The notes beneath the pieces are model-generated. The model was given only the letters and a program-made list of their open reading frames with translations. It did not search any database and was not told the origin of the DNA. Below are positions 6,803 to 52,734 of a stretch of DNA of 64,000 nucleotides, in pieces (positions within the stretch are counted from its first letter, which is position 1; each line of letters begins with the position of its first letter). The stretch lies in the NCBI RefSeq assembly GCF_050920415.1, contig NZ_CP169309.1; one strand, given 5' to 3'. The translations under genes were made by a program, and so were the position numbers. Source of the DNA: Escherichia coli. Lineage in GTDB: Bacteria; Pseudomonadota; Gammaproteobacteria; Enterobacterales; Enterobacteriaceae.

Positions 6803-7252
6803 GTGGCGATTAATTTCAGCCCCAAGGTTGGTGAAATACTGGAATGCAACTTTGGTAACTATCCTGTTAGCCAGAATGGACAGTTCAGCACGACGTATTA
6901 CGATGGCCGCATTCCACCTGAGATGATAAAAAATAGGTTGGTTGTCGTGCTCAACGGAAAAATTAATGGCAACGCATGTATCGTCGTTCCATTATCAACC
7001 ACTCGCGACCATGACAAGTTAAATCGTGGAATGCATGTTGAAATAGCCAGTAATGTTATCAATGACCTGCAATTCTTTGATCAGCAGATACGTTGGGCTA
7101 AAGCCGACCTGGTACAACAAGTCAGTCGAAACCGATTAAACAGAGCAAGGACTTATCGGGGGTATCTTAATCAATGTTTGCCACATGAGTTGGTTGCAGA
7201 CATACAGAGGGCAGTCATCAAGTCAATCAATGCCATATCGCTCATAAATTGA
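6803..7252 (+). CDS. yifN: PemK/MazF-like (toxin-fold) family protein, YifN-like; no adjacent antitoxin ORF
   Basis: ORF 6761..7252; AAGGAG at 6787..6792 precedes a GTG at 6803 (VAINFSPKVGEILECNF...). The KNRLVVVLNGK...ACIVVPLSTT segment is reminiscent of PemK/MazF family proteins (from memory, not an alignment). Start is uncertain (6761 or 6803). Confidence 0.6.
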   Translation: MAINFSPKVGEILECNFGNYPVSQNGQFSTTYYDGRIPPEMIKNRLVVVLNGKINGNACIVVPLSTTRDHDKLNRGMHVEIASNVINDLQFFDQQIRWAKADLVQQVSRNRLNRARTYRGYLNQCLPHELVADIQRAVIKSINAISLIN

Positions 7253-33932: not shown

Positions 33933-35801
33933 TTAAATTTCGACCTGAGTACCCAGTTCGATAACCCTGTTTGGCGGGATTTCAAATTGATCCGGTGCGC
34001 GCAGCGCATTACGTTGCAACAGCAAATACAGCTTGCCGCGCAAACGCAAATACCACGGACGTTTGCCGAGGATCAGTGATTCATGCGACATAAAGAAGGA
34101 GGTTTCCATCATCCGGCAACTTAATCCTTCCAGACCACAGCGGTGGAAAACTTCTTCCACGTTTGGCGTTTCCCGCCATCCATAACTTGCCACCACGCGC
34201 CAGAAAGTGGGCGACAGTTGTTCAATCTGTACCCGACGGACGTTATGGACATATGGCGCGTCTTCAGTGCGCAGAGTTAACAGAATCACCCGCTCATGCA
34301 ACACCTTGTTATGTTTCAGGTTATGCATCAGTGCAAAGGGAATGACGTTGATTGCACGCGACATATACACCGCGGTCCCTGGCACGCGAACGGGCGGTGA
34401 TTTCTCCAGCGAAGCAATCATCGCTTCCAGAGAGTTGCCATGTTCATGCATCCGCCGCAGCAAGCGGAAACGCTCGCTCTTCCAGGTCGTCATCACGATA
34501 AACATTACCGTACCGAGACTCAGTGGCAACCAGCCGCCTGATAGCAGTTTATCGAGGTTAGCGGTGAACAATGGAATATCAACACAAAGGAAAGCAATCA
34601 GGATCAGCGCAACAAAATACTTATTCCAGTGCCAGTTCTGACGTGCCACGGTAGTTGAGAGAATAGACGTCAGTACCATGGTTCCGGTCACCGCAATCCC
34701 GTACGCCGCCGCCAGGTTGCTGGAGTGCTCAAAGCTGACAATCACAATCACGACCGCGACATAGAGCATCCAGTTCACAAACGGAATATAGATTTGCCCA
34801 GACTCCATTTCGGAGGTGTGAATAATGCGCATCGGCGACAAATATCCCAGACGTACGGCCTGACGCGTCAATGAGAAGACGCCAGAGATAACTGCCTGCG
34901 AGGCAATTACCGTCGCCAGTGCGGCGATGATCAGCAGCGGGATCAGCGCCCAGTCCGGTGCCAACAGGAAGAACGGGTTCTTAATCGCTTCCGGGTTCTT
35001 TAACAACAGAGCGCCCTGGCCAAAGTAATTAAGAGTTAATGAAGGCAATACGACGGTGAACCACGCCAGGCGAATCGGGAACTTACCAAAGTGCCCCATA
35101 TCAGCGTACAGCGCCTCGACACCGGTAATCGACAGCACCACTGCCCCTAACGCAATAAACGAAACCGTTTTATATTCAAGGAAGAAATGCACCGCCCACA
35201 TCGGATTCAGCGCATGCAGCACTTCTGGGTTAGCAATAATGCTACGCAACCCCAGTCCCGCCAGAATCAAAAACCAGGTCAGCATGATAGGCGCAAACAG
35301 CTTACCGACCATAGCAGTGCCATGTTTTTGAATCATAAACAGTAAAGTCAGAACGATGATTGAGAGGGGAACTATCCAGGTATCCAGCTGCGGGGCGACG
35401 ATTTCCAGACCTTCAATGGCAGACATCACCGAAATAGCGGGTGTAATGACGACTTCACCATAGAAAAAGCTGCCGCCGATTAATCCCATAATCACCAGCA
35501 TTGATGTGGTTCGCGCCGACGTATTGCGTCCGGCAAGCGACATCAACGTCAGAATGCCCCCTTCCCCGGCGTTATCTGCCCGCATCACGAAGGTGAGATA
35601 TTTAATGGAAACCACAAAGATTAGCAGCCAGAAGATCAGCGATAAAAAGCCAAACACGGCATCGCGTTCAACGCCAAAACCAAACTGGCCGGACAAACAT
35701 TCACGAAGTGTATATAACGGGCTGGTACCAATATCGCCGTAGACAACTCCAATCGCCGCGAGGGTAATCGCGGGCAACGATTGCTTATTATCAGTGCTCA
35801 T
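33933..35801 (-). CDS. kup: Low-affinity K+ uptake protein Kup (KUP/HAK/KT family)
   Basis: 622-aa [39 protein letters not shown]... Confidence 0.94.
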
Positions 35802-36023
35802 AGACTAGTCTTTCGTTGAAATATGAAATGTGTGCTTAGTCCCTTGGCCCACAAAAAAGCGCACAGTATGCACGATTAACGACAAAATCGTACTCCTAAA
35901 TGCGGCCACATTAACCTGGCTCAAAGAAAAATAGACCTCTTTTGAGACTATTTTAGCCACCAGCAAGAAACGTCTATACTCGCAATTTACGCAGAACTTT
36001 TGACGAAAGGACGCCACTTCATT

Positions 36024-37520
36024 ATGGCTCACCCTCATTTATTAGCGGAAAGAATTTCCCGCCTGAGCAGTTCGTTGGAAAAGGGGCTTTATGAACGTAG
36101 CCACGCCATCCGCTTGTGTTTATTAGCGGCATTAAGTGGTGAAAGTGTGTTCCTCCTTGGCCCGCCAGGCATTGCCAAAAGTTTGATCGCCCGGCGCTTA
36201 AAATTCGCCTTTCAGAATGCCCGTGCGTTTGAATATCTGATGACCCGCTTCTCCACGCCGGAAGAAGTTTTTGGTCCCCTTTCCATTCAGGCGCTAAAAG
36301 ATGAAGGGCGCTATGAACGTTTAACCAGCGGTTACCTGCCAGAAGCAGAAATCGTCTTTCTGGATGAGATCTGGAAAGCGGGCCCGGCAATTCTTAATAC
36401 CTTGCTCACCGCCATTAACGAGCGCCAGTTCCGCAACGGTGCACACGTAGAAAAAATCCCGATGCGTCTGCTGGTGGCGGCCTCCAACGAGCTGCCGGAA
36501 GCAGACAGCAGTCTGGAAGCGTTATATGACCGCATGCTGATTCGTCTGTGGTTAGATAAAGTGCAGGATAAAGCGAATTTCCGCTCCATGCTGACCAGTC
36601 AACAGGATGAAAATGACAATCCGGTTCCTGCCTCCTTGCAGGTCACTGATGAAGAATATGAACGCTGGCAGAAAGAGATTGGTGAAATTACGCTGCCCGA
36701 TCATGTATTTGAGCTGATTTTTATGCTGCGCCAGCAACTGGATAAATTACCGGATGCGCCTTATGTCTCGGATCGTCGCTGGAAAAAAGCGATCCGCTTA
36801 TTGCAGGCCAGCGCCTTTTTTAGCGGTCGCAGTGCTGTTGCCCCGGTAGATCTCATTTTGCTGAAAGATTGCCTGTGGTATGACGCGCAAAGCCTGAATT
36901 TGATACAACAACAAATTGATGTATTGATGACCGGTCATGCCTGGCAACAGCAAGGGATGTTGACCCGCCTGGGCGCGATTGTGCAACGTCACCTGCAACT
37001 ACAGCAGCAACAAAGCGATAAAACAGCCTTAACGGTAATTCGTCTGGGCGGCATTTTCAGCCGTCGTCAGCAGTATCAACTCCCTGTTAACATTACTGCT
37101 TCCACTCTGACTCTGCTGCTGCAAAAACCGTTAAAACTGCATGATATGGAAGTGGTTCATATCTCCTTTGAGCGTAGCGCGCTGGAACAGTGGCTGAGCA
37201 GAGGTGGTGAAATTCGCGGCAAACTGAACGGTATCGGCTTTGCCCAGAAACTGAATCTGGAAGTTGATAGCGCCCAACATCTTGTCGTACGCGATGTAAG
37301 TTTACAAGGCAGTACGCTGGCACTTCCCGGTTCATCGGCTGAAGGTCTGCCAGGTGAAATAAAACAACAACTGGAAGAGCTTGAAAGCGACTGGCGCAAG
37401 CAACACGCTTTATTCAGCGAACAGCAAAAATGTCTGTTTATCCCTGGCGACTGGTTAGGTCGCATTGAAGCCAGCCTACAGGATGTCGGCACCCAGATTC
37501 GCCAGGCACAACAATGCTAA
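36024..37520 (+). CDS. ravA: MoxR-family AAA+ ATPase RavA
   Basis: ORF 36000..37520; from the ATG at 36024, [53 protein letters not shown] (Walker A). Confidence 0.92.
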
Positions 37521-38965
37521 CGCTGGATACGCTTAATGTGATGCTGGCCGTCAGCGAAGAGGGATTGATCGAAGAGATGATCATCGCGCTGCTGGCCTCA
37601 CCGCAGCTGGCAGTCTTCTTTGAAAAATTCCCACGACTGAAGGCGGCAATCACTGATGATGTTCCCCGCTGGCGTGAGGCGCTGCGCAGTCGGCTGAAAG
37701 ATGCCCGAGTCCCGCCGGAACTCACCGAAGAGGTGATGTGCTATCAGGAAAGCCAGCTCCTCTCCACGCCGCAGTTTATTGTGCAGCTACCACAGATCCT
37801 GGACTTACTGCATCGTCTGAATTCCCCATGGGCAGAACAAGCCCGACAGTTGGTTGATGCTAACAGCACGATCACTTCAGCGTTACACACACTTTTTCTC
37901 CAGCGTTGGCGTTTAAGTCTGATCGTGCAAGCAACGACGTTAAATCAACAGCTATTAGAAGAAGAACGCGAACAACTGTTGAGTGAAGTTCAGGAACGCA
38001 TGACGCTGAGCGGGCAACTTGAACCGATTCTCGCAGATAATAATACCGCAGCTGGTCGTCTGTGGGATATGAGCGCCGGTCAGCTTAAACGTGGCGACTA
38101 TCAGTTGATTGTGAAATACGGTGAATTTCTTAACGAACAGCCGGAACTGAAACGACTGGCAGACCAACTGGGGCGTTCCCGGGAAGCCAAATCGATACCC
38201 CGTAACGATGCGCAGATGGAAACCTTCCGTACCATGGTGCGCGAACCGGCGACCGTTCCTGAGCAGGTTGATGGACTGCAACAAAGCGACGATATTTTAC
38301 GCCTTCTACCACCGGAATTGGCGACGCTGGGGATAACGGAACTGGAATATGAGTTTTATCGTCGGCTGGTGGAAAAACAATTGCTCACCTATCGCCTTCA
38401 CGGTGAGTCGTGGCGTGAAAAAGTTATCGAACGCCCGGTAGTTCATAAAGATTACGACGAACAGCCGCGCGGACCGTTTATTGTCTGCGTGGATACTTCC
38501 GGCTCAATGGGCGGCTTTAATGAACAGTGTGCGAAAGCGTTCTGTCTGGCATTGATGCGCATAGCCCTCGCTGAAAATCGTCGCTGCTTTATTATGTTAT
38601 TTTCCACCGAGATCGTCCGTTATGAGCTTTCAGGCCCACAAGGCATCGAACAAGCAATCCGTTTTTTAAGCCAGCAGTTTCGTGGCGGTACCGATCTTGC
38701 CAGTTGTTTCCGCGCCATTATGGAACGCTTGCAAAGTCGGGAGTGGTTTGACGCCGATGCGGTGGTGATTTCTGATTTTATCGCCCAGCGGTTGCCTGAC
38801 GACGTGACGAGCAAAGTGAAAGAGTTGCAGCGGGTACATCAGCATCGCTTTCATGCCGTGGCGATGTCGGCACATGGCAAACCCGGCATCATGCGCATTT
38901 TCGATCATATCTGGCGCTTTGATACCGGGATGCGAAGCCGCCTGCTCAGACGCTGGCGGCGATAA
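37514..38965 (+). CDS. viaA: von Willebrand factor A domain protein ViaA
   Basis: 483-aa ORF; the VWA domain with MIDAS-like motif ([11 protein letters not shown]) sits in the C-terminal part; the start overlaps the ravA stop by 7 nt. Confidence 0.92.
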
Positions 38966-38969
38966 ACAA

Positions 38970-39962
38970 TTACAGCAGAGAAGGGACGCTCTCGCGAACA
39001 GCTGCCGGCCATACACCACACTGAACCTGGCCGATATGTGGCAGTTGCAGCAGCAGCATGGTCAAACGAGACTGCCCGATACCGCCGCCGATGGTCTGCG
39101 GCATTTCACCGCGCAGCAGCGCCTGATGCCACTCCAGCTGCAGACGATCTTCATCACCGGTCAGCGCCAGCTGATGTTTCAACGTATCGGCATCCACGCG
39201 GATCCCCATGGAAGAAAGCTCAAACGCATCTTCCAGTACCGGGTTCCATACCAGAATATCGCCGTTCAGACCCGCATGGCCCAGCTCTGACGGGGTGCTC
39301 CAGTCATCATAATCCGGTGCGCGCACGTCGTGACGATGACCATCACTCAACTTGCCGCCAATCCCGACGAGGAATACAGCGCCAAGATCTTTCGCAATCG
39401 CCCGCTCACGTCCTTTGGCATCGAGATCCGGATAACGAGCCAGTAACTCCTGGCTGTGTACGAAGTGGATCTGATCCGGCAGGAACGGTGCCAGGCCAAA
39501 CTCTTCGCTAACTGCAGCTTCGGTTGCTTTAATTCCCGCCCAGATCGCCTCTACCGTGCTTTTCAGAGTCGAGAATTGACGCTCGCCGTCGCCCATTACG
39601 CGCTCCCAGTCCCACTGGTCTACATAGATCGAGTGCAGCGGGGAAAGACGGTCTTCATCGGGGCGAAGGGCTTTCATGTGCGTGTATAGCCCTTCGCCCG
39701 CGCTGAAGTCATGTTGCCCTAAGGTCTGACGTTTCCACTTCGCCAGTGAATGAACCACTTCGAACTGGGCATCAGGCAGAGCTTTCACTTTTACCTGCAC
39801 CGCTTTTTCACAGCCCGACAAGTTATCCTGCGTGCCATCCCCCACACGGCTAAGAATCGGCGCCTGGACTTCGATCAGCCCCAGACGTTCTTCCAGTTGA
39901 CGAGAAAAGTGAGATTTCACGAAGCTAATTTGACGTTGTTTGGCAATGTAAGCGGTTTTCAT
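38970..39962 (-). CDS. asnA: Aspartate-ammonia ligase (asparagine synthetase A)
   Basis: 330-aa [53 protein letters not shown]... Confidence 0.95.
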
Positions 39963-41105: not shown

Positions 41106-41119
41106 GTATACAGATCGTG

Positions 41120-41395
41120 CGATCTGTTGTGGATAACTCTGTCAGGAAGCTTGGATCAACCGGTAGTTATCCAAAGAACAACGGTTGTTCAGTTTTTGAG
41201 TTGTGTATAACCCCTCATTCTGATCCCAGCTTATACGGTCCAGGATCACCGATCATTCACAGTTAATGATCCTTTCCAGGTTGTTGATCTTAAACGCCGG
41301 ATCTTTGTTATCCACAGGGAAGTGCGATCCTAATAAGAGATCACAATAGAACAAATCTCTAAATAAATAGATCTTCTTTTTAATACCCAGGATCC
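41120..41395. other. oriC: Chromosomal replication origin oriC
   Basis: DnaA 9-mer boxes: tgtggataa at 41128..41136, ttatccaaa at 41167..41175, tgtgtataa at 41202..41210, ttatccaca at 41308..41316. AT-rich 13-mer region gatctnttnttt at about 41330..41385, many GATC (Dam) sites, and ggatcc at 41390..41395; flanked by mioC and mnmG. Confidence 0.88.
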
Positions 41396-41483
41396 CAGGT
41401 CTTTCTCAAGCCGACAAAGTTGAGTAGAATCCACGGCCCGGGCTTCAATCCATTTTCATACCGCGTTATGCGAGGCAATCACC

Positions 41484-51760: not shown

Positions 51761-52459
51761 ATGTCTTTTAAAACGTCTTTTGAAGGTGTCCAACCGGTTG
51801 TGATGACCGATCGCGCCACCTTTATCCGCCGTGCTTATATGCATCTGGCTGGGGCAGTTGTCGGGTTCATCATTCTCAGCGCGCTGTTTATCTTTAGTGG
51901 GCTTGGCAAAATGATGCTTAGGGTGCTGATGAACAGTGGTCAGTTTGGTTGGCTGGTGGTGCTGGGTGCTTTTATTCTGGTCAGCATGCTGGCGACTCGT
52001 CTGGCAGATAATGTGGAGTCTAATCAGACCCAACTGATTGGACTGGGGATATACGTACTGGCAGAAGCGTTAATTTTTGCACCTTTACTGACACTGGCAG
52101 CGTATATTAATCCAGCAATTATTGGCGCGGCGGGCATCACCACAGCACTGCTTGTGGGGGGTCTGACATTCACTGCCTTCACGACCAAAAAAGATTTCTC
52201 TTTCATGCGTTCGTTTTTAACCATGGCGGGCTTTATCGCTTTCGGTGCCATTATCGCGAGCATTTTTATGGGATTCTCACTGGGCGTCTGGTTCTCGGCG
52301 GCAATGGTGCTGTTGTGTGCTGGCTTCGTGCTGTACGACACGTCTAATATTATTCATCATTATCCTACCGATCGTCCGGCAGGCGCGGCGCTACATCTCT
52401 TCGCCTCTATCGCTACCATGTTCTGGTATGTTCTGCGCATTTTCATGTCCCGCGATTAA
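51761..52459 (+). CDS. Bax inhibitor-1 (BI-1)/YccA-family integral membrane protein, about 7 TMS
   Basis: 232-aa hydrophobic ORF with family-typical C-terminal motifs TTKKDFSF ... YDTSNIIHHY ... ending SRD; GAGG is followed by the ATG; AT-rich 5' flank; own terminator. Confidence 0.75.
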   Translation: MSFKTSFEGVQPVVMTDRATFIRRAYMHLAGAVVGFIILSALFIFSGLGKMMLRVLMNSGQFGWLVVLGAFILVSMLATRLADNVESNQTQLIGLGIYVLAEALIFAPLLTLAAYINPAIIGAAGITTALLVGGLTFTAFTTKKDFSFMRSFLTMAGFIAFGAIIASIFMGFSLGVWFSAAMVLLCAGFVLYDTSNIIHHYPTDRPAGAALHLFASIATMFWYVLRIFMSRD

Positions 52460-52472
52460 CCCTGCTTGTATA

Positions 52473-52498
52473 AACCAGCGAAATTATTCGCTGGTTTT
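52473..52498 (+). terminator. Rho-independent terminator after the BI-1 family gene
   Basis: aaccagcg-aaattatt-cgctggtt followed by TTCC (stem plus short T-run). Confidence 0.6.
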
Positions 52499-52734
52499 CC
52501 CGTTTATTTATTGATCGAAATAAGAGCAAAAACATCCACCTGACGCTTAAATGAAGGTACTGCCTTAATTTTCTGCAGACAAAAGGCGTGACGATGGTCG
52601 AAAATGGCACTTTCGTCAGCGGGGATAATCCGTTATTGAACAATTTATCCTCTGTCCATTTCACGATGAAAAAAATGTAGTTTTTTCAAGGTGAAGCGGT
52701 TTAAATTCGTTCTCAAATTACAGTCAGGACGCGT

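Follow-up and report, generated by a model that had tools for sequence, protein, structure and literature searches.

An Ordinary, Intact ravA–viaA Operon in the oriC-Proximal Region of an Escherichia coli Chromosome

A pair of overlapping genes in an E. coli chromosomal sequence was identified as ravA–viaA, an already known and well-studied operon that is represented here by an ordinary, intact allele. Taken as a whole, the best explanation of the locus, to which we assign a probability of roughly 0.95, is the canonical two-gene E. coli ravA–viaA operon at its ancestral site, flanked by kup and asnA, with a probable coupling of the translation of the two genes and a putative mechanism in which ViaA acts as an adaptor and RavA as a remodeller.

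Identity and Chromosomal Context of the Operon

The window, i.e., the whole stretch of 64,000 nucleotides that was analyzed, comes from the E. coli chromosome near oriC. On its plus strand, ravA occupies positions 36024-37520 (ATG at 36024, TAA at 37518-37520; 498 aa) and viaA occupies positions 37514-38965 (ATG at 37514-37516, TAA at 38963-38965; 483 aa), as established from the ORF listing and by direct reading of the sequence. In the ORF listing, the ravA frame is extended upstream as far as a TTG at position 36000. The start of ravA in the annotated and crystallised protein (MAHPHLL...) is the ATG at 36024, and the homologues from other genera align from the same residue.

The best genome match, NZ_CP169399.1 (strain MFDS1022581), is 100% identical to the locus and has equal gene boundaries, and its RefSeq annotation names the two products 'ATPase RavA' (ravA) and 'ATPase RavA stimulator ViaA' (viaA). 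A megablast search with positions 36024-38965 against 5426 complete E. coli genomes recovered the pair in 5422 of them, at a DNA identity of 95% to 100%. As a rule, there is one copy per genome among these complete genomes, and it is always found on the chromosome and never on a plasmid.

The genes of the window follow each other in the order rho ... ilv ... rrn operon ... rbs, kup (minus strand), ravA and viaA (plus strand), asnA (minus strand), asnC, and mioC, after which come oriC, mnmG, rsmG, the atp operon, glmUS, lpf, and pst. The ravA–viaA pair lies between kup and asnA, approximately 3.5 kb from oriC. For the examination of synteny, relatives of RavA were collected from one genome per species, which gave at least 564 relatives; the best 80 were retained, and all 80 belong to the Enterobacterales. 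With truncated and fragmentary contigs excluded, kup on the minus strand upstream of ravA and viaA directly downstream of it were found in nearly all of these best 80 loci, and the position of viaA directly 3' of ravA on the same strand is kept across the 80 species loci. The genes asnA–asnC–mioC–mnmG then follow in most Enterobacteriaceae and in Pectobacterium among the best 80 of at least 564 loci. In a few loci (Pseudescherichia, Mangrovibacter) asnA is missing, and in most Pantoea and Erwinia approximately 2.3 kb of other DNA is found in its place. No extra conserved gene joined to ravA–viaA was seen in the best 80 of at least 564 loci, and the pair lies within no genomic island.

A preliminary description of this DNA, made from the sequence alone, had recognised the pair as ravA–viaA and had proposed a comparison with the characterised proteins and a synteny check. 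The identification is borne out by the genome matches as well as by the PDB matches and NCBIfam equivalog scores given below, and the order kup/ravA/viaA turned out to be kept in the Enterobacterales loci surveyed.

Domains and Motifs of RavA and ViaA

The Pfam analysis showed that RavA is a MoxR-class AAA+ ATPase, in which an AAA+ module is followed by an AAA lid, the LARA domain, and the RavA C-terminal domain (matches to PF20030, PF07728, PF17868, PF20265, and PF12592). PF07728 and PF20030 cover residues 11-204, the LARA domain PF20265 covers residues 335-436 (E=4e-39), and the C-terminal domain PF12592 covers residues 444-497 (E=2.7e-23). Both the Walker A motif (GPPGIAKS, residues 46-53) and the Walker B motif (IVFLDE, residues 110-115) are intact. 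Residues 1-498 align with positions 1-498 of the NCBIfam equivalog model NF010054 'ATPase RavA' at a score of 991 bits (cut-off 681). The comparison with the solved structures showed that RavA is identical to the PDB chains 6q7l and 3nbx at 493 of 498 residues over its full length, with five substitutions, and that it is also matched by the LARA-domain chains 4upf and 5fl2.

In K-12, RavA and the lysine decarboxylase LdcI build a 3.3-MDa cage by means of the LARA domain (PMC6987120, PMC4145799). From the 99% identity to the RavA characterised in these papers, the RavA encoded here is predicted to form hexamers, to have ATPase activity, and to take part in the LdcI cage. It should be added that cadA/ldcI is located outside the window.

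The ViaA protein consists of an N-terminal helical (VAN/NTV) domain, a middle region, a C-terminal VWA domain (PF05762 and PF13519 in Pfam, residues 320-457), and an Arg-rich C-terminal helix. Its score against the NCBIfam equivalog NF008230 'ATPase RavA stimulator ViaA' is 876.5 bits (cut-off 500). Residues 1-191 are identical at 190 of 191 positions to PDB 7ugc 'Protein ViaA', the solved N-terminal domain, whose VAN fold was described from an NMR structure (PMC10585395). The MIDAS motif DTSGS (DxSxS) at residues 327-331 is intact. The C-terminal helix retains R476 and R479, the lipid-binding arginines of ViaA, the replacement of which (R476E/R479E) leads to the loss of function (PMC9489729).

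Non-Coding Regions Flanking the Operon

The divergent kup–ravA intergenic region at 35802-36023 (222 bp, read on the plus strand) holds the ravA–viaA promoter region. A Shine–Dalgarno-like AGGA is located at 36008-36011, 12 nt before the ravA ATG. Compared with K-12, 5 of 222 positions of the spacer differ, and four of these five differences fall in a single place, where the C7 tract of K-12 (ACCCCCCCT) is replaced by AGACCTCTT (GACCTCT) at 35934-35940.

The consensus scan found no sigma-70 site within 35802-36023. Similarly, no Fnr box TTGATnnnnATCAA with up to two mismatches was found inside 35802-36023; across the whole window this pattern has 35 matches against 33 expected, and the nearest one, at 35781-35794, lies inside kup. 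As the consensus scans gave no site in the spacer, the published sigma-S and Fnr control of the operon cannot be mapped onto this sequence.

At the other end, the stop codons of viaA (plus strand) and the convergent asnA (minus strand) are separated by a spacer of 4 nt (38966-38969), so that there is no room for an intergenic terminator. A search for an intrinsic terminator after viaA gave no credible candidate, only weak stem-loops in the 3' end of viaA at about the level expected from shuffled sequence. The scan of the whole window at the Rfam gathering thresholds showed no Rfam family within 35802-38969.

The ravA/viaA Junction

The genes overlap on the plus strand by the sequence ATGCTAA at 37514-37520, in which the viaA start codon (37514-37516) precedes the ravA stop codon (37518-37520). 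The 7-nt overlap noted in the preliminary description is thus exact to the base, and the two reading frames differ. Upstream of the viaA ATG, at a distance of 7 nt, a Shine–Dalgarno-like AGG is present at 37504-37506, within the ravA codons Q494-A495 (CAG GCN).

The junction was scored in 77 of the 80 Enterobacterales loci. A tight overlap was seen in 74 of the 77, with a length of 7 nt in 35 loci (ATGCTAA, ATGCTGA, ATGTTAA, or GTGCTGA), 4 nt in 29 loci (ATGA, GTGA, or TTGA), and 1 nt in 10 loci (TAATG). In two Pectobacterium loci, the genes are instead separated by a gap of 5 nt, and the remaining locus (L056) is frameshifted or comes from a poor assembly. In 76 of the 77 loci, across genera in which the synonymous sites are largely randomised, no more than a few nucleotides separate the stop from the start. 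With a tight junction retained in 74 of the 77, the overlap cannot be put down to two open reading frames meeting by chance: its exact length varies, and the close apposition of the two genes is conserved. Q494 is encoded by CAG in 76 of the 78 sequences (97%), compared with a mean of 76% for the conserved ravA Gln codons, and this bias is matched by one other of the 18 conserved Gln columns. A Shine–Dalgarno constraint on this codon is only suggestive.

A conserved close junction is the pattern that would be expected for termination–reinitiation coupling. According to this model, ravA and viaA would be transcribed as one mRNA from the kup–ravA intergenic region, the ribosomes stopping at the ravA TAA at 37518-37520 would reinitiate at the viaA ATG 4 nt upstream, and the weak internal AGG may assist this reinitiation. 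Coupling of this kind would tie the synthesis of ViaA to that of RavA at a lower yield, which fits the approximately 350 RavA and 90 ViaA molecules reported per cell (PMC3893208). Where the preliminary description spoke of coupled translation, the overlap is real and the tight junction is conserved, while the coupling itself is read from the overlap rather than demonstrated. Two observations speak against it, namely that the AGG could persist by codon preference alone, one other Gln column being equally biased, and that a gap takes the place of the overlap in two Pectobacterium species.

An alternative explanation is that the overlap has no regulatory meaning, viaA being translated independently and the overlap being a matter of mere genome compaction. 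The variation in the junction (7, 4, or 1 nt of overlap or a 5-nt gap) agrees with this explanation, and the Shine–Dalgarno-like AGG has a spacing suitable for driving independent initiation. We nevertheless consider it unlikely, as the stop and the start remain close in almost all of the loci scored despite the randomised synonymous sites, the Shine–Dalgarno sequence is weak (AGG only), and the reported level of ViaA is below that of RavA yet co-varies with it. Returning to coupling, the conserved junction makes it a reasonable and cheaply testable account of the reported excess of RavA over ViaA. The small addition made here is that the proximity of the ravA stop and the viaA start is conserved in the Enterobacterales while the overlap shifts between 7, 4, and 1 nt.

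Relation to Conflict Systems

The preliminary description had remarked in passing that AAA+ and VWA pairs also occur in defence-related systems. This holds in general (PMC7159879), but the locus studied here gives no defence signal either in the PADLOC scan or in its context.

In the Pfam analysis, the AAA+ module of RavA scores highest, at 191 bits, against PF20030, 'MoxR domain in the MoxR-vWA-beta-propeller ternary systems' (bpMoxR). We regard this top match as a domain-level resemblance only. A broader interpretation could be that RavA–ViaA is a domesticated two-gene descendant of the MoxR-vWA conflict systems that works, when the cell is under energy stress, as a regulated switch of the membrane or pmf and not as a chaperone. 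We consider this very improbable. If it were true, the tight junction and the weak internal Shine–Dalgarno sequence would fix a sub-stoichiometric ratio of ViaA to RavA and in this way avert the toxicity of the switch. Compatible with a switch are the proximity of the AAA+ module to bpMoxR in Pfam, the disputed role of the pair, and the remodelling of membranes upon ViaA overexpression; the window itself offers no specific support for it.

It is extremely improbable that ravA–viaA is, or doubles as, a MoxR-vWA anti-phage or conflict system whose ATPase and VWA protein govern the release of a toxic effector. Besides the PF20030 match, this possibility draws on the fact that MoxR-vWA pairs form the core of the described conflict systems (PMC7159879) and on the effect of the operon, which raises the sensitivity of the cell to a toxin (aminoglycosides) and does not lower it. 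Against it, PADLOC gave no significant match, the best hits being short fragments with E=0.0031 (an RtcR AAA fragment, 14 bits) and 0.06. The pair is accompanied by no VMAP, iSTAND, FtsH, or beta-propeller third component and by no effector domain, its flanks being kup and asnA. Unlike the patchy defence islands, it occurs in nearly all E. coli genomes and keeps its synteny in the Enterobacterales, and it is under strong purifying selection with no diversification. Moreover, Kaur et al. class RavA–ViaA separately, as an assembly chaperone pair (PMC7159879). The described MoxR-vWA conflict systems are ternary and are defined by the third component and the effector domains (PMC7159879); as no third gene lies beside ravA–viaA, a ternary system of this type is excluded here. 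The defence reading was rejected on the null PADLOC scan of both proteins and the absence of the third gene.

Comparison with the K-12 Allele

In K-12 MG1655 (b3746-b3745), ravA and viaA have the same lengths as here and the junction sequence is identical. Between the K-12 protein and the one encoded here, RavA differs by five substitutions in 498 residues (D203A, A204S, V357I, K393R, and A490T) and ViaA by three in 483 (Q79E, E217D, and Y359F; 480/483 identical). The nucleotide differences amount to 1.7% in ravA and 4.1% in viaA, and the dN/dS values of 0.071 for ravA and 0.014 for viaA point to strong purifying selection on both genes without diversification. The view of the preliminary description that nothing distinguishes this copy from the standard one is upheld by these few conservative substitutions, by the low dN/dS values, and by the intact state of the motifs checked.

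An identity of at least 99% to this ravA–viaA allele was found in only 3 of 5422 genomes, most of the others being at 95-99%. The flanking genes are equally rare at this level of identity (kup in 1 genome, asnA–asnC–mioC in 2 genomes), which indicates that the rarity stems from a sparsely sampled strain lineage and not from the operon. A divergence specific to the locus was rejected, since kup and asnA–mioC show the same pattern of rarity.

The chance that the locus is not the working operon but a decayed or functionally diverged allele, for instance a pseudogene, a recombinant, or a paralogue, is practically negligible: the scarcity of close matches and a divergence from K-12 that varies along the locus could be taken that way, but both frames are full length as in K-12, none of the eight amino acid changes falls in Walker A or B, the MIDAS motif, or R476/R479, the dN/dS values are low, the flanks share the rarity, and the genomes carry a single copy each, which lies at the orthologous site.

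Cellular Role and Comparison with Known Systems

In experiments with the K-12 proteins, RavA was found to be a hexameric MoxR AAA+ ATPase, to which ViaA binds and whose ATPase activity it stimulates. The two genes form a co-transcribed operon that depends on sigma-S under aerobic conditions (PMC3893208, PMC9489729) and is also under Fnr control (PMC9489729). RavA–ViaA was reported to interact with Nuo subunits and to sensitise cells to aminoglycosides (PMC3893208), as well as to associate with fumarate reductase (Frd) and to suppress Frd-linked persistence (PMC10585395). Both proteins were found at the inner membrane and show binding to anionic phospholipids, and the sensitisation to gentamicin is lost in lipid-binding mutants (PMC9489729). 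The sensitisation to aminoglycosides needs the pmf, while no change in the activity of Frd or Nuo was seen (PMC9973319); the K-12 experiments showed that RavA–ViaA raises the pmf-dependent killing by aminoglycosides under anaerobic or low-energy conditions.

The published models are in conflict on the direct contact with respiratory complexes and on the binding of lipids by LARA. In the work of the Gutsche and Barras groups, neither purified FrdA nor purified NuoEFG was bound directly, and the activity of Frd and Nuo did not change (PMC9973319, PMC9489729). The Houry group reports that it did not observe LARA–lipid binding (PMC10585395). Whether the pair is a chaperone of respiratory complexes or a modulator of the membrane and pmf is debated, and the copy described here adds nothing to this debate. 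In the mechanism that we favor, ViaA would be the adaptor that targets the membrane and the substrate, and RavA would be the ATP-driven remodeller of the respiratory complexes or of their lipid environment.

The preliminary description had called this copy a housekeeping one and had rated the locus as being of low interest. The low rating is supported. As to housekeeping, the copy is indeed standard, but the word is loose for an operon with low and conditional expression (sigma-S, Fnr) and a disputed role (PMC3893208, PMC9489729, PMC9973319, PMC10585395). The operon is of medical interest in that, when oxygen is absent or energy is low, it makes E. coli and V. cholerae more sensitive to aminoglycosides, and the copy described here is a normal allele of it.

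Among the known systems, the MoxR-vWA ternary conflict systems (Kaur et al. 2020, PMC7159879) share with ravA–viaA the pairing of a MoxR-type AAA+ protein with a VWA protein, RavA matching PF20030. In contrast to them, ravA–viaA lacks a third component and effector domains, its distribution is not patchy, its host is not multicellular, and the PADLOC result is null. NorQ–NorD, CoxD–CoxE, and MoxR–MoxC/L are cases in which a gene for a MoxR-class ATPase likewise stands beside a VWA/MIDAS gene, and in which the ATPase and the adaptor serve the maturation or remodelling of a dedicated enzyme complex (PMC9976466, PMC7159879). What sets RavA–ViaA apart from the other MoxR/VWA pairs is that its client is unsettled and that the LARA and RavA C-terminal domains of RavA and the VAN-fold N-terminus of ViaA are specific to the RavA subfamily. 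CbbQ–CbbO is a further MoxR AAA+/VWA chaperone pair. The K-12 system itself has been solved in the structures 3NBX, 6Q7L, and 6SZA (RavA) and 7UGC (ViaA's N-terminal domain). None of the differences from K-12 in RavA, ViaA, or the upstream region has a known functional consequence, and all of the motifs checked are identical between the K-12 system and the operon described here.

Divergence from K-12 along kup-ravA-viaA-asnA

The comparison with E. coli K-12 (MG1655) showed that the divergence is unevenly distributed along the kup-ravA-viaA-asnA segment. For ravA and viaA, which form the known operon of an AAA+ ATPase and its VWA partner, dS against K-12 is 0.06 and 0.19, respectively. The count is 3-9 differences per 300 nt over ravA and the first half of viaA (36033-38132), but 13-24 per 300 nt from the second half of viaA into asnA (38133-39632) and in kup (33933-35732). 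This uneven divergence, with an apparent boundary at about position 38130, suggests an old recombination mosaic.

The 222-bp spacer between the divergent genes kup and ravA contains only five differences from K-12, four of which result from the replacement of a single C-run. The replaced stretch is 35934-35940, within the promoter region of kup and ravA; it reads AGACCTCTT in the window and ACCCCCCCT, with its run of seven C, in K-12. The same spacer carries, on the minus strand and in the upstream leader of kup, a terminator-like stem-loop with a T-run after it (CGTGCATACTGTGCG CTTTTTTGTG; 35859-35874), which is kept in K-12.

At the other end of the operon, the stop codons of viaA and asnA face each other with just 4 nt between them (38963-38972). 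Therefore, the viaA and asnA transcripts must each end within the opposite gene. The scan for an intrinsic terminator at this convergent end gave no convincing candidate.

Other features of the window

The long-polar-fimbria usher gene lpfC-O113 is interrupted by a 1331-bp IS2 element (59475-60805), indicating that this gene is broken in the source strain. The element is flanked by a 5-bp target duplication, CTCTC (59470-59474 and 60806-60810). MFDS1022581, otherwise the closest complete genome, lacks IS2 at lpfC-O113 and has approximately 20 copies of it at other chromosomal sites.

Approximately 350 positions differ between the window and the closest complete genome at 22732-25478, within the 23S-16S rRNA operon, and the single-copy DNA around this region is identical in the two. 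The differences are patterned like small indels or copy-specific variation and probably reflect either heterogeneity among rrn copies or an assembly difference.

Between rep and ppiC, a plus-strand gene (6803-7252) is annotated as a type II toxin-antitoxin toxin of the PemK/MazF family, with no antitoxin annotation adjoining it. The interval between atpC and glmU contains a Bax inhibitor-1/YccA family gene on the plus strand (51761-52459), directly followed on the minus strand by an Rfam match to the sRNA STnc410 (52494-52651; 186 bits). Since K-12 is not known to have a gene in this interval, the Bax inhibitor-1/YccA segment is probably accessory DNA. The mioC-mnmG spacer (41106-41483) matches the position of oriC in the K-12 annotation, and thus the chromosomal replication origin falls inside the window.
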